Assembly: GCA_041640595.1 (NCBI GenBank)
Contig: JBEPZY010000001.1
Location: 768,001-832,000 of the forward strand
DNA from: Gemmatales bacterium
GTDB taxonomy: Bacteria > Planctomycetota > Planctomycetia > Gemmatales > HRBIN36
DNA: 64,000 nt
Reading direction: 5' to 3'
The first letter of the stretch is position 1; every line of letters begins with the position of its first letter. Below the pieces are notes generated by a model that saw only the letters and a list, made by a program, of their open reading frames with translations, was not told the DNA's origin and did no database searches. Position numbers and translations under genes: made by a program. Positions 35,393-51,123 of this stretch are shown here, piece after piece.

Positions 35393-36665
35393 AAAGCACC
35401 TCCAGTTCTGACTGACCCGGACTGGCCAGCACCAGGCCACCGCGGGGATGATTCACCCAGACTACCGCATCCGGTTCGCCCTGAACATGTCGCTGCAGGA
35501 TCGCCTCCAGCGCATGTACCACAGCCACGGTATGGCGGTCGGCGGACAGGTCGTTGTAAGCCAGCGCTCGCATCTGTTGCAATCGTTCCGTTCGTTGGCT
35601 CTTAGGTCCGCCAAATTCCACGTAAGCCACTTCCTCAAAGAATCGCTCAATTGCTTCCAGACCATAACCGCGCTGTGTGCGTTCGCCCCACGGTTCGAGA
35701 AAGCATGCGTTGTAATGGTGATTGGGCGTGATTTTGAACTCGTGTGGCGTTCTTCCTTCGATGGTTACTTCCACACCGCGTTTACGCTGATGGGCGTTCC
35801 AAACCGCGTTATCGAAACGAAACTGCACCTCTTGCTCGACATATCCGGGGAAATTATCAGGCGTAACCCAGCTGGTATGGATATCGAATGCTGCCTCTCG
35901 CCCGTCGGGATAAACGTAGATGATTCGCAGTTGCACCGAATCCCAGGTCGGTCCGTTCGGCTCAGCAACGATGCCACGCTGCCCGGTCGCCGTGATCCTC
36001 GCCAATCTCGCTGCTGTCCCATGGAAAAACGTGAAATCAATCAGCTTCACGTAATGCACCGCAACATAGCTTCCCGGATTGCGACCGTGAATCCACTCGG
36101 CGAACTGCGCTGTTCCGATTTGCTTTGGCTCCAACAGGGAACAATAGCCGTGATTGACGTGGCGAAGGACCTTGTCGGCCACAAGCGTTCGCAAACGTTT
36201 ATGGTCGGGATCGAACAACTTGTGATAGACGACTTTGGCCAGGACGCCGTTTTCCTTGGCCAAGTTCAACAGGTCATCGAGTTCCTGCATCCGCAACACG
36301 GAAGGCTTTTCGATGAGCACGTGTTTGCCGGCAGCCAGGGCCAATCGTGCCGCCTGGTAGTGCCGGTCATCGGGAGTAGCGACGCAGACAACATCCACGC
36401 CGACTTCCAAAAGCTTTTTGACCGCGTCCGGTTCGGTCACGCTCACGAACGGGGCAATACGATCGGCAGCCTGTTGACGATACTTTTCTGCCCGCCTGCC
36501 AGTTTTGCTGGCTACCGCGGCCAATTCAACAGCAACTCGCCCTGTTTCGGGTGTCCAGAGTCCACGCCGGTGCAATTTTTCCAGGGTCGGGCGATAGGTT
36601 TCGTCGAAAATCATGCCCATCCCGACCATCCCGACACGCAAGAGCCGTTCGGGCTCCCCAGGCAT
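35376..36665 (-). CDS. Gfo/Idh/MocA family oxidoreductase
   Basis: VGMVGMG Rossmann motif, VATPDDRH, GKHVLIEKPS. Confidence 0.9.
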   Translation of the reverse strand: MPGEPERLLRVGMVGMGMIFDETYRPTLEKLHRRGLWTPETGRVAVELAAVASKTGRRAEKYRQQAADRIAPFVSVTEPDAVKKLLEVGVDVVCVATPDDRHYQAARLALAAGKHVLIEKPSVLRMQELDDLLNLAKENGVLAKVVYHKLFDPDHKRLRTLVADKVLRHVNHGYCSLLEPKQIGTAQFAEWIHGRNPGSYVAVHYVKLIDFTFFHGTAARLARITATGQRGIVAEPNGPTWDSVQLRIIYVYPDGREAAFDIHTSWVTPDNFPGYVEQEVQFRFDNAVWNAHQRKRGVEVTIEGRTPHEFKITPNHHYNACFLEPWGERTQRGYGLEAIERFFEEVAYVEFGGPKSQRTERLQQMRALAYNDLSADRHTVAVVHALEAILQRHVQGEPDAVVWVNHPRGGLVLASPGQSELEVLYEPRV

Positions 36666-36715
36666 ATTTCATCTCCCGAATCCTCTTCGCCCTCAGCCAG
36701 GCGTGCTCAGGCATA

Positions 36716-37084
36716 TTATGGCAGCCAGTAAATGACGATGGTGAGAAGCAGGGCAGTCAGCAACGATTGTACGACAATCCGTAGGGTCCGCCTGCGGGCA
36801 TCCGCAACCGCCTGGACGTCGGTTTGCACAACTTCGCCATTATCCCAATTGCACGTCCCGCGTGCAGCCATGACGACTCAGGTCGAACCCCGCGCTTCCA
36901 ACCAAGCCAGAAGCCAGAACCAGATCGGCAGAAATAATGCCAGGCGCCAGATTCGCTCGACCTGCAACGCGATCAGCACGACGTAAAGGCCAAGGGCGAC
37001 AACCAGACTCAGCGAGCCAATCACCAGTCGCTTACGCCGTTCGCGCGGCCCAATGTTGCCATCACATACCGGAGCTTCACTCAT
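36716..37084 (-). CDS. Probable selenoprotein: 122-aa three-TM membrane protein with in-frame TGA at codon 69 (YgaP/DUF2892-like pattern)
   Basis: The 68-aa ORF ends ...LEARGST at TGA (36878-36880). The frame continues VVMAARGTCNWDNGEVVQTDVQAVADARRRTLRIVVQSLLTALLLTIVIYWLP to TAA (36716-36718). A SECIS-like hairpin starts 11 nt after the TGA. Confidence 0.7.
36850..36866 (-). promoter_or_regulatory. Candidate bacterial SECIS element
   Basis: The mRNA reads UGA-GUCGUCAUGGC-UGCACG-CGGGA-CGUGCA: an 11-nt spacer, a perfect 6-bp stem and a 5-nt loop with G at position 2. Confidence 0.65.
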
Positions 37085-37360
37085 GCTTCATCCCGTCCTT
37101 TCCACCCGTTGCCGCTTACGTTGTACGGAATCCAAACCGACTCGACACGCCCAACAGTCGCGCGATCCCTCTCAGCAATGTCCTCGAATCCTCCAAGCGA
37201 TACGTTGACCATCTCGGTCGGACGTGCTGGCAGCCGGAACAGCAACCCTGACTGGAGCCCTTCGCCGATTCGGCTGTCACGTGAGCCTGGAATGCGCTCG
37301 GTTTCACTTCCGGGGTTCGAACAACAAACCACGGATTTTCCTGGGTTTTTACAGTAGCGT

Positions 37361-37478
37361 AATTGAACATAAGAGCGGTTATCGGAAGTTGTGGAAGAAC
37401 ACTGGGAATGGCCGGCGATCGAACGGAATCCGCTGGCCGCCCGAAAACAACTTCCGATAACTGCCGTTATGTTCGATT
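37361..37478. repeat. 32-bp imperfect inverted repeat forming a long hairpin (ncRNA or MITE-like)
   Basis: AATTGAACATAAGAGCGGTTATCGGAAGTTGT (37361-37392) versus ACAACTTCCGATAACTGCCGTTATGTTCGATT (37447-37478): 28/32 Watson-Crick pairs. Inner stem GGCCGGCG/CGCTGGCC. Confidence 0.8.
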
Positions 37479-37552
37479 AGCACGCGTACCAAAATCTAGC
37501 TGAGCATCGGGCCGAACCATACATCACCGCGACGATTTCGCCAGGACGCGGT

Positions 37553-38662
37553 TCAATGCTGGGAGTCGGAATTGCTGTTTTCGGTCGCCTCAGCAGATTC
37601 GTCCAGGGTCAGGTTGGCGGAAGGAGCGTCTGCCGAATCGTGGGTAGCTGAAGCATTGCTCGACCCGGCCTGACCGGTCTGGTTGCTGGTTGCAGTTACG
37701 CCGCGCAGAAAGACTCCCATGCGACGAAACTTTTCATACCGCCGCTGCAACAGGACATCGGTGGGAACATCCCGCAGCTCTCGCAGGTAACGAAGCAGGT
37801 AAGTCTTCAGTGTGTTAGCCATGCTTCGTGGGTCGCGGTGAGCGCCGCCGAGTGGTTCGGGAATCACATCATCGAGCACGCCCAGGCGTTGCAGGTCGCG
37901 AGCGGTGAGTTTCAATGCGTCGGCAGCACGGGCCTTGGTTTCATCGGTAGCTTCTTTCCACAGAATGCCTGCACAACCTTCGGGGCTGATTACCGAATAA
38001 TAGGCGAACTCGAGCATGGCCAGTTTGTCGCCCACACCGATTCCCAAAGCGCCACCGGAACCGCCTTCGCCTATAACCACGCAAATAATCGGCGTGGGAA
38101 GGCGCGACATCTCGAGCAAATTCTCGGCGATCAGATAAGCCTGGCCCCGCTCCTCTGCTCCGATGCCTGGATAGGCTCCGGGCGTGTCTATCAAAGAAAC
38201 GATGGGGATGCGAAATTTGGCAGCCAGTTTCATTTTCTTAATCGCCTTGCGATATCCTTCGGGATGGGCACAACCATAAAAACACTGCTGCCGTTCCTGC
38301 AACGTTCGCCCCTTTTGATGGCCGATGAGCATGACCTTGTAATCCCCGATACGGGCAAAACCGGTGCGAATAGCGCGGTCATCGCCGAAAGCCCGGTCGC
38401 CATGCAGTTCGACAAAATCTTCCGCAATAGCTTCGACGTAGTCGAGAAACTGAGGCCGTTCCGGATGACGAGCCACCAGCACGGTTTCCCAGGCGGAAAG
38501 ATTGCTATAAATCTTTCGTTTCAGATTGGTGAGTTCCCGACGAACCCGTTGCAACTCTTCGGCACTGGCCAGCTTTTTCTCGACGTCGGCCTCCAGCCGT
38601 GCCAGCACCTCTTCCAGTTCGTAAATTTCCTTTTCGAATGGCAGACGATAGGTCGTGGCCAT
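37553..38662 (-). CDS. accA: Acetyl-CoA carboxylase carboxyltransferase alpha subunit
   Basis: ELHGDR, PEGYRKA, IDTPGAYPG, GEGGSGGAL, YSVISPEGCA, EPLGGAHRD. Low-complexity C-terminal tail. Confidence 0.97.
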   Translation of the reverse strand: MATTYRLPFEKEIYELEEVLARLEADVEKKLASAEELQRVRRELTNLKRKIYSNLSAWETVLVARHPERPQFLDYVEAIAEDFVELHGDRAFGDDRAIRTGFARIGDYKVMLIGHQKGRTLQERQQCFYGCAHPEGYRKAIKKMKLAAKFRIPIVSLIDTPGAYPGIGAEERGQAYLIAENLLEMSRLPTPIICVVIGEGGSGGALGIGVGDKLAMLEFAYYSVISPEGCAGILWKEATDETKARAADALKLTARDLQRLGVLDDVIPEPLGGAHRDPRSMANTLKTYLLRYLRELRDVPTDVLLQRRYEKFRRMGVFLRGVTATSNQTGQAGSSNASATHDSADAPSANLTLDESAEATENSNSDSQH

Positions 38663-43865: not shown

Positions 43866-44034
43866 GCCTTCCCTCTCTTTAGACGTGGGCGGGCGACGCC
43901 GAGTTCCCTGCGACGGTTGCTAGCGCTAGCATACAATGATTTCCGGTCAACGGGTATCTCTTGCCTCTGGTTGCAGTTCTGAAAAGCCAACACGCCCGGG
44001 CAGCAGCTTTTCCTCTGTAATAATCCTAGCAGCA

Positions 44035-47000
44035 ATGGAAACGAGCAAGATTGTCATCCGCGGTGCACGCGAGCATAATCTGCAAAATGTTTGCCTGGAA
44101 TTACCACGCAATCGCCTGATCGTGTTCACCGGGGTAAGTGGCTCAGGCAAAAGCTCGCTGGCTTTCGACACTCTTTATGCCGAAGGACAACGGCGTTACC
44201 TGGAGTCGCTGTCCAGCTATGCGCGACAGTTTCTAGGCCAGCTGCAAAAGCCAGACGTGGACTATCTCGGCGGACTTTCGCCGTCCATCAGCATCCAGCA
44301 AAAAACGGCCGGACGCAATCCTCGTTCGACCGTAGGAACGATTACCGAAATTTACGACCTGCTGCGTGTCTTATTTGCCCGAGTGGGACGGGGTCATTGT
44401 CCGCGATGCGGCCGACCAGTCCAGGCCCAGAGCCGCGACCAGATCGTCGAGCAGATTCTGGCATTACCCGAGCGTACCCGTATCCTCGTCCTCGCGCCGG
44501 TGATTCGTGAGCAAAAGGGGGAATACAAGGATTTGTTTGCGGAAATGTTACGCCGCGGTTACCTGCGAGCGCGGGTGGATGGCCAGCTGGTGCGCATTAC
44601 CGAGGAATTGCGCCTGGATCGTCAGCTCAAGCACAACATCGAGATCGTAGTGGATCGCATCATGGTTGAAGCAAAAGCGCGAAGCCGAATTGCCGATGCG
44701 GTCGAACAGGCTCTCCAGCTCAGCGACGGTACCTTGCTGGTTCTAGTCGAGCCTGAAGAAACTGTGGACACTCGTGCGCGGCGTAATTCCGAGCAGGAAA
44801 GCAACCAGTCACTGCGGTCGAGGGAGATGCTGCTCTCGGCGAAATATGCCTGCGCCCATTGCCAGGTGAGTTACGATCCGCCGTCGCCGCAACTATTCAG
44901 TTTCAACAGCCCGCAGGGGATGTGCCGCGAGTGCGAGGGACTGGGCGAAAAATACGATTTCGACCCGGCGCTGCTGGTGCCCGACCCGAATCTGAGTTTT
45001 GCTGAAGGTGCGGTCGAAATTATCGGGCCTCTCCATGCCATGGGACGGTGGCGCCGCCACATTTTCGAGGGTGTCGCAGAGTCGCTCGGAATTGACCTGA
45101 ATCGCCCCTGGAAGAAACTGCCAGCACAACATCGGCACTGGCTGCTTTATGGAAGCGGCGACCGCCAAATCCTGTTTACCTGGCGTGGCCGAGATCATGT
45201 CTGGAAGCATTATGGCCAGTGGGAGGGGATAATTCCGCAACTGCTCCGCAGCTTCAAGAAAACTCCTACTGGGCCCCGACGTTTACAGCTGGAAAAGTAC
45301 ATGCGGATTGTCCCCTGCGCTGCCTGCCGAGGAACCCGCCTCAATCCGCAGGCTCGCTCGGTACGTGTTGGAGGCAAAACATTACCCGAAGTGTGTGCCC
45401 TTCCAATTGGTCAACTGGCGCGCTGGTTTGCCGTGCCCCAGTCCAACGATGACAGCAGCGATTATCTCGTTCGCCATCTCACGCCGCTGGAACAACATAT
45501 CGCTTCTGAGGTGCTCAAGGAAATTCGCACACGGTTACAGTTCCTGACCGATGTCGGTTTGCACTATCTGACGCTGGATCGGCCGGCACCCAGTTTGTCC
45601 GGTGGCGAGGCTCAGCGTATTCGGCTGGCGCGACAGATCGGAAGTGGGCTGGTGGGTGTGCTTTACATTCTCGACGAACCCAGCATTGGCCTGCATCCGC
45701 GTGATAACGCTCGCCTGCTGGCCAGCTTGAAGCAGCTCCGCGACATGGGCAACACGGTGGTGGTCGTGGAACACGATGAAGACACCATTCGGGCTGCCGA
45801 TTATGTGGTGGATTTCGGACCTGGTGCAGGTGTGCGTGGCGGTCGAATCGTCGCCTGCGGCAGTGTGGACGACATTTGTCAGCATCCGGAGAGCTTGACC
45901 GGGCAGTACCTGAGTGGCCGCAAACAGATACCGATTCCGCAAAGCCGTCGGTCTCCGGGAAAGGAACGGCTCCGCATTTACGGAGCCTGTCATAATAATC
46001 TCAAAAACATTGACGTGGAAATCCCCTTGGGTCTATTCGTTTGTGTAACCGGAGTGAGCGGTTCGGGGAAAAGCTCTTTAGTGAACGACGTGTTGTTACG
46101 AGCGTTGCGAAGGCACCTGAATAAAAACGACAGCGATGACGAAGACGACGAAACGAGCTTGCGACGGATTTTGCCTCCTGGTCGGCATCGAAAAATTACG
46201 GGCTTGCAGTATCTCGATAAAGTAATCGCCGTGGACCAATCTCCCATCGGGAGAACGCCGCGATCGAACCCGGCGACGTACATCAAGGTGTTTGACGAAA
46301 TCCGGCAATTGTTCGCAAGTTTGCCGACGGCCCGAGTTCGCGGATACAAACCAGGACGCTTTAGCTTCAACGTTCCGGGCGGACGATGCGAAGCCTGTCA
46401 GGGACACGGAGCGAATCGCCTGGAAATGGACTTTCTCGCCGATATCTGGGTGCCATGCGAAGTTTGCGAGGGACGACGCTTCAACCGTGAAACCCTGCAG
46501 GTCGAATTCAAGGGAAAGAACATCCACGAGGTGCTCCAGCTCGACGTGCAGGAAGCTCTGGAGCTGTTTGCCAATCAACCCAAAATCCGCGCCATGTTGC
46601 AGACCTTGCACGACGTTGGCTTGGATTACATCAAACTGGGACAACCTTCTCCCACGCTATCGGGTGGCGAAGCCCAGCGGATCAAACTCGCCCGGGAACT
46701 CTGCCGCAAAAGCACCGGCCGAACACTGTACATTCTGGACGAGCCAACGACTGGCTTGCACTTTGACGACATTGCCAAGCTTTTGCGTGTTCTGCACGAA
46801 CTGGTAGATCGCGGCAACACCGTTGTGGTGATTGAGCACAATCTCGAAGTTATCAAGACCGCCGACTGGGTCATTGATCTGGGCCCGGAAGGCGGTGAGG
46901 CCGGTGGTTACGTTGTCTGCGTCGGGCCGCCCGAAGCCATTGCTCAATGTCCGCAGTCTTATACCGGCCAGGCCTTGCAGCGTGTTTTAAACCCGGTAGC

Positions 47001-50000
47001 TCCCACCGCAATGCCAGCCGAAAAGGCCCGGGCACGCAGGTCTCGCCGCGAGCAAACTTCCGTTCCGTCACGTGAGCAAACTTCGACTTCGGATGCAAGT
47101 GATGCGCGAACCTCCGCCATCACCCACATCACCGTCCGGGGGGCTCAGCAGCATAACCTGAAAAACATTTCGGTTGCCCTGCCCCGCGAGCAGATGACGG
47201 TATTTTGCGGCCCGAGCGGTTCCGGCAAGACCTCTCTGGCGGTGGACACCATTTATGCTGAGGGACAGCGGCGGTACATCGAATCCCTCTCCGCTTATGC
47301 CCGACAGTTCCTGGGCGGCATTCAGAAGCCGAAGGTGGAACAAATCACAGGACTCTCGCCGGCCGTTTGTATCGAGCAGAAAAACACCAGCAAAAGTCCC
47401 CGTTCGACGGTGGGAACGGTTACGGAAATCCATGACTATTTGCGCGTGCTTTACGCCCGGCTTGGACAAATGTATTGCCCGCGTTGCCAGGTACCGGTCA
47501 GCACCCAGACCGCGGACCAGATCATAGACCGTTTGCTGAGTTTTCCGGAAGGCACCAGGCTTTACATTCTGGCCCCGCTAGAACGGCGCGAAACCGAGTC
47601 CTACGCCGATTTGTGGGAAGAAGTGCGGCGTGCCGGTTTCGTTCGAGTCCGAGTAGATGGGAAAACCTACACTCTGGAAGAAGTGCCGAACTTGGATCGT
47701 CGCCGGCGGCACGAGGTGCAGGTGGTCGTGGACCGGGCGGTGGTACGCGGCAACCAACGGTCACGCCTAGCCGATGCGGTGGAGCAGGCGCTCGAAGTGG
47801 GCTGCGGTGTTTTGCAGGTGGCGATAGTCGAGGACGGCCTGCCCGAGGAACGCTGGCGGCAGCAACAATTCAGCCAGCACCTGGCCTGTCATCAATGCGG
47901 GCGTGGCTTCGAGCCCCTCAACCCGCATCACTTTTCCTTCAACAGTCCGCTGGGCTGGTGCCCGGCCTGCGAAGGCCTGGGCGTCCAGCAGGGCGCTAAT
48001 CCCCATGCACTAATCCGCGATGCCGGTCGCAGTTTACGCGAAGGTGCGATTGTCGGCTGGTCGGACTTACGAGATTCGCTCTTCGGGCAAATCATGGAAG
48101 CAGTGGCCCGACATCACGGTTTGCCCCTGGATGTTCCGCTTCGCCAACTGGAGCCTGCTGCCCGGCGCATCCTTTTCTACGGAGGCGGGAATGTAAGCGT
48201 CGCTGTCAATCCGCTGTCAACGCCTACCGAAAAACTCCATGCGAATGATACTTGCGGCGACGCCTCGCAACCTGGTGAATTCGGAGATGCGTCTGGACGC
48301 TTCTGGGTTGAATACAAGGGGTTGTTTCCAGCACTGGAGGAGGCCGCGCGGATCAGTCCTGTCTGGCGACAGCGTCTGGAAGCGTTGATTAGCGACGTAC
48401 CTTGCTCGGTGTGCCAGGGAGCCCGACTCCGCGACGATGCCGCGGCGGTTCGCTTCCGCGGAAAAACCTTGCACGAGCTGGGAGAACTGCCGCTCGGCCA
48501 GGCCCTTGCCTTTTTCCGCGAACTACGCTTATCCCACCGGGAACAGCAGATCGCCGGCGAACTGGTACGGGAAATTGAGCAACGTTTGCAGTTCCTTGTG
48601 GACGTTGGTCTGGATTACCTGACGCTGAATCGCCCGGCACCGACTTTGTCTGGCGGGGAAGCACAGCGAATCCAGCTTGCCGCGCAACTGGGAAGCGGCC
48701 TGACCGGCGTCCTCTACGTGCTCGATGAACCGACCATCGGTTTGCATCCCCGTGACAATCGCCGCCTGATTCGCGCTTTGAAACAGCTACGCGACCTAGG
48801 CAACACGCTGATTTTGGTCGAACACGATCGCGAGGTGATTGCCACCGCCGATTACCTTGTAGATTTCGGTCCCGGTGCCGGTGACCGGGGTGGTGAGATT
48901 GTCGCCCATGGTTGCCCTGAGGCCGTCCAGAAACAGGAGCATTCGCTGACCGGGCAGTACCTCAGCGGCCGTCAGGCTATCCCGGTACCGACATCTCGCA
49001 GACCGCCCGCGCCGGACCGCTGGTTAATCGTGCGGGGAGCCCGACAAAACAACCTGAAAAACCTGGATGTCGCTTTTCCTCTGGGCTGCCTGATAGCAGT
49101 AACCGGGGTGAGTGGTTCAGGCAAAAGCTCGCTGGTGCAAGAAGTTCTGTATAACACGCTGGCTCGCAAATTGCATCGGGCTCGCACTCCGGTTGCCGCC
49201 TGCGATGACATCCTGGGCATTGAACACCTGGACAAGGTCATCAACGTGGATCAGAGCCCAATCGGTTCGACTCCGGCCTCGAACCCGGCCACGTACACTG
49301 GTGTGTTCGACCTGCTGCGTGAACTGTACGCCCAGCTACCGGAAGCCCGTGTTCGTGGTTACACGGCTCGCCGTTTCAGTTTCAATCGCCCGGGAGGTCG
49401 CTGCGAGGCTTGCGAGGGTAATGGCCAGAAACGTATCGAGATGCATTTCCTTCCCGATGTTTGGGTGGAATGCGAGGTGTGTCGCGGTAGCCGATATAAC
49501 GCTGAAACACTGCAAGTCCGTTACAAGGGCTATAGCATCAGCGACGTGTTGAACATGCGGGTGAGCCAGGCGCTGGAGGTGTTTGCTTCTTTTCCGCGTA
49601 TCCGCCGCATTTTACAAACCCTGGCCGATGTCGGGCTCGATTACGTCGCATTAGGCCAGCCAGCGCCAACTTTGTCCGGCGGGGAAGCGCAGCGCGTGAA
49701 GCTCGCCGCCGAACTGGCCCGACCGAACACTGGTCGAACCCTGTATATCCTCGATGAGCCGACCACCGGTTTGCATTTCGAAGACATCCGCAAACTGTTG
49801 GAGGTGCTGCATCGCTTGGTAGATCTGGGCAATACGGTCGTCGTTATCGAACACAACCTGGACGTCATCAAAACCGCGGATTGGGTCATTGATCTCGGTC
49901 CCGAAGCAGGCGACGCAGGTGGCTATGTGGTCGCCTGCGGGACGCCGGAAGACGTGACCAGTGGTCGCCAACCAACCACCGCTCCGCCGAAACTGCCCGA

Positions 50001-51123
50001 TGGATCGCTGCTCACCTGGCCGGACGGTAGTCTGCCATCGCATACACGTCCATTTCTGGCCGAAACACTCGAGCGCAGTCCCCGTGCGGATCGGCGACCC
50101 GTGGTGGTTGAGTCGGAAGAATCGGTGCCGACGGCCAGCGATGATCTCCCCGCTGTGCTTGCACCCTGGGAAGCAGATGGCGTGCGCTGGCATACTCAGG
50201 AACGCCATAGCAGCGACGGTCAACCCTGCCGATGGGATGGCCGTATTCTGCTCTGGCTCGATGAAAAAATTCACCAGCTCGGCGAATTCGCACCCACGGA
50301 CTGGAATCACCGCACACGGGTCGAGATTGCCTGGAAGGAACGCAGCAAGGGTTGGTTTTTGCATGCTTACACCGGAGATGCCTGGCTGGTCTGGTTGAGC
50401 TTTCGCGTGGCTCGTAACACGTTCCGCCAGGAGCAGCTGGAGGCGCAATTGGGCATTCGGCCCTGCAGCGAAACGCCTGGCCTGGAGGGTCTTGGCGACG
50501 CTCCGCGAGTGCGTGTGCAGAATCAGCGCGGTCCCTGGCAACAGGTCGAGTTGGGCGTGCACCGCCTCTCTGAAATTCAGAGCAAGGCTTTTGGCCAGTT
50601 CCTCAAACAGGCCGTCCAATCGTTCAGCCGCCAGATGCAATTGTTGTCACGTAAACCCGAAGACTTCATGCCCTGGAAAGTAGATGGCAAACGCTGGCAT
50701 CTGTCTGCGAAGGGCTTTCCGCCTGGTCAAGAGCGTCAGTGGCCTGCTTCGCTTTTATCCGCGCTGGTGGTATGGGTGCAGAAAGCGGTGCCCGATGTGG
50801 TTTTCGACTGGGGCTACCGCGATGCCGTGGTATTGCGCTTACCAGATATTCGCCGACCCTGGGCACGCTGGCGAACGAAGCAACCAGATTACCTGGAGTG
50901 TGCCTTTGCTGTGCCGAAAGGAAGCTGGAACCTGGCCCAGCTGGAACGACTCACTGCCGGGTTCGATCTGGACACTGATCATCGTGACGTGGATGTCGTC
51001 CGCTGGCGCTTCACCCGCGAAGAAGAGTTGGTCGGTTCGACAGCCCAGGAGTTATTCCGTGCCCTGGCGGAGTCGTTTCGCCGACAATTTGGCGTCTCGC
51101 CTTCGGCCAAGATAGACAAATAA
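44035..51123 (+). CDS. uvrA: Excinuclease ABC subunit A, double-length (two tandem UvrA units) with a C-terminal extension
   Basis: Four Walker A motifs (GVSGSGKS three times, GPSGSGKT) and four LSGGEAQR signatures. Duplicated CxxC zinc fingers and FSFNSP motifs. Confidence 0.95.
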   Translation: METSKIVIRGAREHNLQNVCLELPRNRLIVFTGVSGSGKSSLAFDTLYAEGQRRYLESLSSYARQFLGQLQKPDVDYLGGLSPSISIQQKTAGRNPRSTVGTITEIYDLLRVLFARVGRGHCPRCGRPVQAQSRDQIVEQILALPERTRILVLAPVIREQKGEYKDLFAEMLRRGYLRARVDGQLVRITEELRLDRQLKHNIEIVVDRIMVEAKARSRIADAVEQALQLSDGTLLVLVEPEETVDTRARRNSEQESNQSLRSREMLLSAKYACAHCQVSYDPPSPQLFSFNSPQGMCRECEGLGEKYDFDPALLVPDPNLSFAEGAVEIIGPLHAMGRWRRHIFEGVAESLGIDLNRPWKKLPAQHRHWLLYGSGDRQILFTWRGRDHVWKHYGQWEGIIPQLLRSFKKTPTGPRRLQLEKYMRIVPCAACRGTRLNPQARSVRVGGKTLPEVCALPIGQLARWFAVPQSNDDSSDYLVRHLTPLEQHIASEVLKEIRTRLQFLTDVGLHYLTLDRPAPSLSGGEAQRIRLARQIGSGLVGVLYILDEPSIGLHPRDNARLLASLKQLRDMGNTVVVVEHDEDTIRAADYVVDFGPGAGVRGGRIVACGSVDDICQHPESLTGQYLSGRKQIPIPQSRRSPGKERLRIYGACHNNLKNIDVEIPLGLFVCVTGVSGSGKSSLVNDVLLRALRRHLNKNDSDDEDDETSLRRILPPGRHRKITGLQYLDKVIAVDQSPIGRTPRSNPATYIKVFDEIRQLFASLPTARVRGYKPGRFSFNVPGGRCEACQGHGANRLEMDFLADIWVPCEVCEGRRFNRETLQVEFKGKNIHEVLQLDVQEALELFANQPKIRAMLQTLHDVGLDYIKLGQPSPTLSGGEAQRIKLARELCRKSTGRTLYILDEPTTGLHFDDIAKLLRVLHELVDRGNTVVVIEHNLEVIKTADWVIDLGPEGGEAGGYVVCVGPPEAIAQCPQSYTGQALQRVLNPVAPTAMPAEKARARRSRREQTSVPSREQTSTSDASDARTSAITHITVRGAQQHNLKNISVALPREQMTVFCGPSGSGKTSLAVDTIYAEGQRRYIESLSAYARQFLGGIQKPKVEQITGLSPAVCIEQKNTSKSPRSTVGTVTEIHDYLRVLYARLGQMYCPRCQVPVSTQTADQIIDRLLSFPEGTRLYILAPLERRETESYADLWEEVRRAGFVRVRVDGKTYTLEEVPNLDRRRRHEVQVVVDRAVVRGNQRSRLADAVEQALEVGCGVLQVAIVEDGLPEERWRQQQFSQHLACHQCGRGFEPLNPHHFSFNSPLGWCPACEGLGVQQGANPHALIRDAGRSLREGAIVGWSDLRDSLFGQIMEAVARHHGLPLDVPLRQLEPAARRILFYGGGNVSVAVNPLSTPTEKLHANDTCGDASQPGEFGDASGRFWVEYKGLFPALEEAARISPVWRQRLEALISDVPCSVCQGARLRDDAAAVRFRGKTLHELGELPLGQALAFFRELRLSHREQQIAGELVREIEQRLQFLVDVGLDYLTLNRPAPTLSGGEAQRIQLAAQLGSGLTGVLYVLDEPTIGLHPRDNRRLIRALKQLRDLGNTLILVEHDREVIATADYLVDFGPGAGDRGGEIVAHGCPEAVQKQEHSLTGQYLSGRQAIPVPTSRRPPAPDRWLIVRGARQNNLKNLDVAFPLGCLIAVTGVSGSGKSSLVQEVLYNTLARKLHRARTPVAACDDILGIEHLDKVINVDQSPIGSTPASNPATYTGVFDLLRELYAQLPEARVRGYTARRFSFNRPGGRCEACEGNGQKRIEMHFLPDVWVECEVCRGSRYNAETLQVRYKGYSISDVLNMRVSQALEVFASFPRIRRILQTLADVGLDYVALGQPAPTLSGGEAQRVKLAAELARPNTGRTLYILDEPTTGLHFEDIRKLLEVLHRLVDLGNTVVVIEHNLDVIKTADWVIDLGPEAGDAGGYVVACGTPEDVTSGRQPTTAPPKLPDGSLLTWPDGSLPSHTRPFLAETLERSPRADRRPVVVESEESVPTASDDLPAVLAPWEADGVRWHTQERHSSDGQPCRWDGRILLWLDEKIHQLGEFAPTDWNHRTRVEIAWKERSKGWFLHAYTGDAWLVWLSFRVARNTFRQEQLEAQLGIRPCSETPGLEGLGDAPRVRVQNQRGPWQQVELGVHRLSEIQSKAFGQFLKQAVQSFSRQMQLLSRKPEDFMPWKVDGKRWHLSAKGFPPGQERQWPASLLSALVVWVQKAVPDVVFDWGYRDAVVLRLPDIRRPWARWRTKQPDYLECAFAVPKGSWNLAQLERLTAGFDLDTDHRDVDVVRWRFTREEELVGSTAQELFRALAESFRRQFGVSPSAKIDK

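Follow-up and report, generated by a model that had tools for sequence, protein, structure and literature searches.

A probable unannotated selenoprotein gene for a small three-helix membrane protein in a Gemmatales bacterium

A gene on the minus strand of a 64,000-nucleotide (nt) stretch of DNA from a Gemmatales bacterium (GenBank assembly GCA_041640595.1, contig JBEPZY010000001.1, positions 768,001 to 832,000) is very probably a genuine selenoprotein gene that has escaped annotation, its in-frame UGA being decoded as selenocysteine (Sec). The whole stretch is called the window here and coordinates are those of the window unless a contig or locus is named. The minus-strand open reading frame (ORF) at 37084-36881 comprises 68 codons and is followed by a TGA at 36880-36878, past which the frame stays open for 53 further codons up to a TAA at 36718-36716 that we read as the true stop. 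The complete selenoprotein gene (36716..37084) has 122 codons plus the TAA and its read-through product has 122 residues including the selenocysteine U69, with homologues that align across the TGA over residues 1-122. Gene callers record only the 68-amino-acid (aa) ORF. The gene very probably belongs, as its selenium form, to a large bacterial family that has no name and whose proteins of about 120 aa share one Cys that is nearly invariant and located where helix 2 ends; it would represent a new family of selenoproteins, which are themselves a known kind of gene. The ORF, the TGA, the read-through frame and a downstream hairpin had been pointed out in a first-pass annotation made from the letters alone, and its coordinates and sequences for these elements were all correct on the minus strand.

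Cysteine and UGA in one alignment column

A total of 101 homologues from at least five phyla were classified at column 69, where 57 have TGA, 43 have Cys and one has Ser, all of them in one alignment column. When 401 genomes of the window's phylum were searched in six frames, the gene turned up in 29, own genome included; among the 28 others, 19 carry one in-frame TGA at column 69, seven have Cys and one has Ser, and the last, a weak match, was left unclassified. A pattern scan that took one genome per species gave 76 loci with organism titles (37 TGA, 36 Cys and three unclassifiable) from Pyrinomonadaceae and other Acidobacteriota, Thermoanaerobaculia, Gemmatimonadota, Myxococcota, Chloroflexota, a Rokubacteria metagenome-assembled genome and 'Bacterium HR36', the last of which is the closest of the 76 with 84% identity. 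The word-indexed search with the read-through protein returned 24 relatives, 22 of them recorded as proteins of 67-93 aa that end at the residue aligned with T68. Only the other two are full-length (129 and 121 aa), and both have Cys at column 69 and can be aligned to the C-terminus.

The TGA and Cys forms are not confined to separate lineages. Pyrinomonadaceae, Gemmatimonadota, Myxococcota and Chloroflexota each contain both, as does a single genus of the phylum sample (g222), in which genome G271 has TGA and genome G331 has Cys. At least 16 switches between Sec and Cys were counted on a quick tree of the 101 rows, but since the alignment is short and the tree noisy, only the qualitative point is kept that both forms occur within several lineages. 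Lineages have thus switched repeatedly between Cys and Sec.

The other reading of the short ORF is that the TGA is a genuine stop, so that the product is a 68-aa two-helix protein and the downstream frame is either untranslated or the decaying remnant of a nonsense mutation. The forms of 67-93 aa recorded in public protein sets for 22 of the 24 matches agree with this, as do the own hairpin, which folds no better than shuffled sequence, and the chance occurrence of open frames in GC-rich DNA. Against it stand the 57 independent TGA forms, whose TGA always lies at the column where relatives have Cys, and a downstream part that is conserved about like the upstream part. Mean pairwise identity between Sec-Sec pairs is 0.434 before column 69 and 0.395 after it (43% and 40%), and between Cys-Cys pairs it is 0.532 and 0.446. 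The TGA forms also end at the same C-terminus as the Cys forms, with a median open length of 53 residues after Sec compared with 55 after Cys; the two shortest TGA forms, which have 32 and 40 residues after Sec, are probably cut by contig ends. A bias to third positions is found among strain variants in other samples, where six of the nine variable sites past the TGA are third codon positions, and a change at 36881, next to the TGA, is synonymous. In addition, the truncated product would be without the family's only nearly invariant Cys. We consider a genuine stop to be very improbable.

Even less probable is a pair of separate small genes, in which the 68-aa protein is followed by a 51-aa protein re-initiated at the in-frame ATG at 36871-36869: a 51-aa ORF with an ATG does exist at 36716-36871, two codons after the TGA, but a Met at +3 is a peculiarity of this genome, the position being occupied by L, M, H, R or F in homologues, and in many TGA forms the sequence TGA-ATC-GCG-CTG offers no start codon after the stop. 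In addition, the Cys forms are single uninterrupted proteins, and the AlphaFold2 model described below folds as one unit.

Some unusual members were also observed. Rare members have Ser (locus L037 of genome G187) or Gly (one of the 62 in alignment A4) at the Sec/Cys column and may be inactive or functionally diverged copies. Two loci (L112:975-1201 and L116:4001-4226) keep the N-terminal motif of the family while similarity is gone after helix 1 or helix 2, and these look like frameshifted or decayed copies.

The downstream hairpin and the selenium machinery

The UGA codon 69 (36878..36880, minus strand) is followed after 11 nt (36877-36867) by a perfect hairpin made of UGCACG (36866-36861), CGGGA (36860-36856) and CGUGCA (36855-36850), which the first-pass annotation likened to a selenocysteine insertion sequence (SECIS). 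This SECIS-type hairpin (36850..36866, minus strand) has a 6-bp stem and a CGGGA loop that begins 17 nt after the UGA. The bacterial SECIS (bSECIS) model, as given in the legend to Fig. 2 of PMC13188914, has a loop of 3-9 nt, a stem of 4-16 bp, a G in loop positions 1-2, a spacing of 16-37 nt and a minimum free energy of -7.5 or below; we applied these constraints in a strict version, to perfect-stem hairpins. The 5-nt loop, 6-bp stem and spacing of 17 in the own gene fit the model, and its energy is borderline.

The hairpin was found to be specifically enriched after the TGA. The bSECIS model is passed by 39 of the 57 TGA forms (mean best energy -9.50) and by only four of the 44 Cys/Ser forms (mean -3.49). 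When the TGA forms were recoded synonymously, 10.7 +/- 2.7 of them passed, never more than 17 in any of 100 trials, and the mean energy was -4.43. The SECIS reading is upheld by this enrichment over both the Cys forms and the recodings. A GC-rich hairpin is present at about the same place in every TGA form, and in 55 of the 57 its loop starts 16-19 nt after the UGA, the loop being mostly GGUCA, CGGGA or GGUCU with the G early. Each of the 20 TGA forms in the phylum sample is more stably folded than its own recodings (mean z -1.38; six of the 20 at p<0.05), whereas the Cys/Ser forms do not (mean z -0.39). The named structure pairs in 77% of cells when laid on the 57 TGA forms, and its covariation score is 0.168 compared with 0.109 +/- 0.012 in shuffled alignments, none of the 500 shuffles reaching 0.168. 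A compensatory synonymous pair in locus L094 keeps the stem intact (UCACGC...GCGUGA versus UCGCGC...GCGCGA).

In this genome, which is 95% complete at 4.45 Mb in 42 contigs, a tRNA-Sec with the anticodon tca was found together with a SelA (E 1.7e-142) and an adjoining SelB (E 1.3e-115). The selD gene is located at contig C1:725715-726641 on the minus strand, about 42 kb before the window start, and because it holds one in-frame TGA, the SelD of this genome is itself a selenoprotein. Among the genomes with TGA forms, SelA was found in 18 of 19, the single miss being a 92%-complete assembly of 340 contigs. Among those with Cys/Ser forms it was found in six of eight, and both family-bearing genomes without SelA carry Cys forms. 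Other hot-spring or mat samples, represented by contigs from two DNA runs and two RNA-library runs, keep both the TGA at 36878-36880 and the hairpin unchanged, and one RNA-library contig of 512 nt spans 36679-37190. The runs in which this DNA occurs are mostly hot-spring and microbial-mat metagenomes.

These data also bear on a reading in which translation passes the UGA by inserting something other than selenocysteine, either with a near-cognate tRNA that brings in Trp, Cys or Arg or under a reassigned code. Such a read-through would explain the conservation of the downstream part equally well. However, 14 of the 20 TGA-form genes in the phylum sample terminate at a second TGA, which makes TGA an ordinary stop there, so that the code is not reassigned and only the TGA in the Cys column is special. 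The Cys in that column of the relatives is the signature of Sec/Cys exchange, and both the enrichment of a SECIS-type hairpin after the TGA and the distribution of SelA speak for Sec. We rate this read-through as improbable as the two separate genes.

Several observations weigh against decoding of the UGA as selenocysteine, most of them concerning the hairpin. The 48-nt stretch of the own gene folds at -11.6 kcal/mol, dinucleotide shuffles of it at -12.25 +/- 2.25 (z +0.29), with 122 of the 200 shuffles equalling or exceeding it in stability. The own hairpin reaches -8.1 kcal/mol in a 31-nt window but only -7.1 when isolated, just short of the -7.5 of the model, and the strict perfect-stem version of that model is failed by 18 of the 57 TGA forms. 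The stem overlaps the conserved A-R-G-x-R codons and has a self-complementary CGCG core, which is the reason why the recoding and register controls were run; controls with the register slid by -2 and +2 still pair 64% and 52% of cells. A Cys-form homologue (L061) has the same GCACG-CGGGA-CGUGC core, so part of the own hairpin follows from the A-R-G-T-C codons. The register of the hairpin slides by 1-2 nt between lineages, and no Rfam match was obtained on 36600-37200 or 37000-37650 even at permissive E-values. As regards the machinery, SelA is found in 290 of the 401 genomes of the phylum sample, and its co-occurrence with TGA forms therefore discriminates weakly. RNA-library contigs, moreover, are no proof of transcription. 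Judged from its sequence, the own hairpin alone is not beyond chance, and its significance comes from the comparison across homologues only.

The first-pass annotation had expected homologues with Cys or TGA at position 69, similarity that continues past the TGA, the Sec machinery in the genome and the same TGA in independent samples. All of this was found, with SelA, SelB, SelD and tRNA-Sec present and the TGA kept in contigs of four other public runs.

In the mechanism that we propose, one gene would give a 122-residue integral membrane protein with three helices, and the UGA at codon 69 would be decoded as selenocysteine by the ordinary bacterial route. The mRNA hairpin 11 nt downstream would act as the SECIS and recruit SelB with Sec-tRNA(Sec), thereby outcompeting release factor 2. 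The E. coli fdhF gene is the paradigm of a bacterial SECIS read by SelB, and the gene described here is like the fdhF-type genes with an intragenic SECIS in having an in-frame UGA aligned with Cys and a hairpin directly downstream.

The protein family, its predicted fold and its nearest relatives

A profile of 30 members was searched against 1.84 billion protein cluster representatives (50% identity clusters) and gave 2950 matches at E<=1e-3, of which 1334 are at E<=1e-10. The best 150 profile matches are all 106-215 aa long. In 62 aligned full-length representatives, column 69 is Cys in 61 and Gly in one; R19 is invariant, and N10, Q63, V70, A73 and G76 are nearly so. The family consensus reads N-I-G-P-R-x-R-R-x-R ... 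W-R-L-x-L-F-x-P ... L-G-x-F-Q-A-R-x-x-T-C-V-x-L-A-A-R-G-x-x-N-x-D-x-G-x-E ... L-R-R-x-A and is followed by a hydrophobic helix. The Sec/Cys motif itself, F-Q-A-R-x-x-T-[C/U]-[VI]-x-L-A-A-R-G, is positioned at the end of helix 2.

None of the resources searched gave the family a name. The own protein matched no NCBIfam family at E<=1 and nothing relevant in Pfam. The 62 members gave scattered chance matches only against NCBIfam, and for 30 members there was no fitting family among the Pfam matches listed. In the protein atlas, the clusters around a Cys homologue are labelled 'hypothetical protein' and have no common Pfam family.

Sec69 had been placed by the first-pass annotation on one membrane face with Cys7 and Cys78, as a possible joint site. 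A fixed site of this kind is unlikely because neither of the two Cys residues is a conserved feature of the family: of the 62 members, 34 have an N-terminal Cys and 18 have Cys78, with Arg at residue 78 in 30.

Residue 78 (36851-36853, minus strand) was observed to track the form of the protein. Of the named-genome loci, 19 of the 36 with a Cys form have Cys there, but only four of the 37 Sec forms do and the other 33 have Arg; the phylum sample has the same trend. Either the CGC codon for Arg is kept for the SECIS stem or a second, resolving Cys is needed only by the Cys forms.

The start codon (ATG, 37082..37084, minus strand) encodes a Met that is the same in the close relatives P0002-P0006. 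It is preceded by a possible Shine-Dalgarno stretch, GGAAAGGA (37096..37103, minus strand), which we read 11 nt upstream of the ATG. No promoter or terminator consensus was found around the gene. An AlphaFold2 model of the read-through protein, built from a 62-row alignment, has a mean predicted local distance difference test score (pLDDT) of 95.9 and a predicted template modelling score of 0.85. Helices are predicted at residues 13-39, 44-66 and 90-120, together with a short helix at 70-75 and a beta-hairpin (77-79/84-86) with a bridge to residue 11. Helix 1 (36968..37048, minus strand) is preceded by the conserved N-I-G-P-R-E-R-R-K-R motif of residues 10-19, and helix 2 (36887..36955, minus strand) ends in the [QE]-A-R-x-x-T motif just before Sec. 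The conserved segment after Sec (residues 70-86; 36827..36877, minus strand) contains the short helix and the beta-hairpin, and its family motif is V-x-L-A-A-R-G-x-[RC]-N-x-D-x-G-x-E. The long helix 3 (36725..36817, minus strand) has a basic amphipathic start (LRRxA), continues as the third hydrophobic helix and is packed on helices 1 and 2 in the model. A homodimer prediction with two copies of a Cys homologue alignment scored 0.00, a value that speaks neither for nor against a dimer.

The closest named relative, weakly, is YgaP-like_TM (PF11127, formerly DUF2892). When the layouts were compared by inspection, with DUF2892 members from the same phylum, both were seen to share an N-terminal N/S-x-x-[ED]-R-x-x-R-x-x-x-G motif, a pair of hydrophobic helices and, directly behind helix 2, an invariant Cys. 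Unlike PF11127, the present family adds about 55 conserved residues that make up the short helix, the beta-hairpin and the third membrane helix. Neither the own protein at E<=1 nor the own genome (G000) gave a PF11127 match. The model was matched by four of 30 members with a best E of 0.0073, which is below the gathering score of 25.3 bits, and the alignment of the family (A4) with the DUF2892 members (A6) by hhalign gave a probability of 4.3% and an E of 0.0095; its 55 aligned columns bring the motif and the Cys of the two families into register. The atlas structural neighbours of a Cys homologue include YgaP-like_TM clusters with template modelling (TM) scores of 0.46-0.52, one of them fused to glutaredoxin. 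The resemblance to YgaP and DUF2892 suggested by the first-pass annotation stands for the layout with its invariant Cys after helix 2 but is weak as homology, and we would therefore call the family DUF2892-like in layout and not a demonstrated member.

The gene product also invites comparison with known membrane selenoproteins, among them those of the MerT type. It is likewise an integral membrane protein with Sec; it has no match to their models, and here the Sec is single, with no paired CxxU or UxxC, and lies at the end of helix 2 and not inside a helix. MerT-type proteins are also small three-helix membrane proteins. A mercuric transport protein of the MerT type was considered and rejected: PF02411 has no match in the own protein, nor for the 30 members among the matches listed (E<=1), and the own helix 1 has no CC pair.

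A separate structural likeness was observed for the Cys homologue P0026, whose atlas model superposes on a fungal RGS/RAX1_C membrane domain (PF27892) with a TM score of 0.85 over 121 residues. The C-terminal domain of RAX1 is eukaryotic and lies behind an RGS domain, the models on both sides of the comparison are predicted ones, and no PF27892 match was found in the local Pfam copy. The likeness could reflect a bacterial relative of the eukaryotic domain or a convergence of three-helix bundles.

Possible function, genomic setting and significance

Under the positive-inside rule for membrane topology, two basic stretches, the N-terminus (RERRKR) and the loop that follows Sec, are probably cytoplasmic. 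This would place Sec69 at the membrane's cytoplasmic interface, where the small beta-hairpin and the N-I-G motif of the N-terminus would pack against it. A conserved chalcogen that is single and may be either S or Se suggests that it acts as a nucleophile or in redox chemistry. Because the nearly invariant Cys is exchangeable with Sec and lies at the end of helix 2 beside conserved polar motifs, and because the layout parallels that of a domain fused to thiol and sulfur enzymes (including the rhodanese fused to the YgaP-like_TM domain in E. coli YgaP), we tentatively suggest that the protein may use its thiol or selenol for a transfer or a redox reaction on the cytoplasmic side of the membrane, possibly with a persulfide, a selenosulfide or a metal or metalloid intermediate.

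Some points count against this suggestion, which is drawn by analogy only. No domain fusions were found, the longer members (155-215 aa) having no Pfam domain in their extensions and a search for longer homologues finding none. ORF clustering of 104 loci revealed no gene neighbourhood conserved across phyla, only lineage-specific neighbours. There was also no related solved structure beyond generic helical bundles: Foldseek returned nothing from the PDB at E<=0.001, the best Z of VIA-align wide was 7.5, to generic helical bundles, and a sequence profile search of the PDB gave chance matches only (E>=0.26).

At the own locus, accA lies upstream of the gene and a GFO/IDH/MocA oxidoreductase and a class-III aminotransferase lie downstream. 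In 35-39 loci of Pyrinomonadaceae/Acidobacteriota (L041-L092), the gene was observed directly downstream, on the same strand, of a resistance-nodulation-division (RND) transporter (ACR_tran) and an outer-membrane efflux protein (OEP). The arrangement with an RND pump and an outer-membrane factor upstream is lineage-specific and was not seen in other phyla; elsewhere the neighbour is an esterase, an aldo-keto reductase or MMPL. The window also contains, about 7 kb from the gene, a 2395-aa ORF for a giant protein at 43936-51123 on the plus strand. The genome has 19 matches to PSD1 (PF07587), a domain typical of Planctomycetota.

A wider idea, which we hold to be unlikely, is that the three-helix family and the two-helix DUF2892 together form one old and very widespread class of single-chalcogen membrane proteins, whose lone Cys or Sec at the cytoplasmic face would bind sulfur, selenium or a metalloid in a covalent intermediate and so move it into, out of or along the membrane. 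If true, such a carrier mechanism would be the first of its kind described for bacteria, and the repeated switch to Sec would mark those lineages where the chemistry is rate-limiting.

The family appears to be new to the selenoprotein inventory. Table 1 of a 2026 review (PMC13188914) has 119 prokaryotic selenoprotein families and subfamilies, each with a domain identifier, and none in that table is a small three-helix membrane protein like this one; the Pfam, NCBIfam and TIGRFAM models named there, in a scan that covered all but the families with cd or PTHR identifiers only, gave no match. The nine new families of deep-Sep, as described in the available part of that report (PMC12013277), are different from this one. 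In the library of papers searched, none pairs DUF2892 with selenocysteine or YgaP with selenoprotein, and none gives the motif NIGPRERRKR.

The gene is cut at codon 68 by gene callers and in public protein sets in dozens of genomes from at least five phyla, so that annotation and selenoproteome counts lack an entire selenoprotein family. As the hairpin overlaps the conserved A-R-G-x-R codons, the family is a useful case for improving SECIS and selenoprotein predictors. Membrane-embedded bacterial selenoproteins are rare in the published inventory. The exchange between Sec and Cys marks the one conserved Cys of the family as its working residue and provides a handle on the function of an uncharacterised membrane family.

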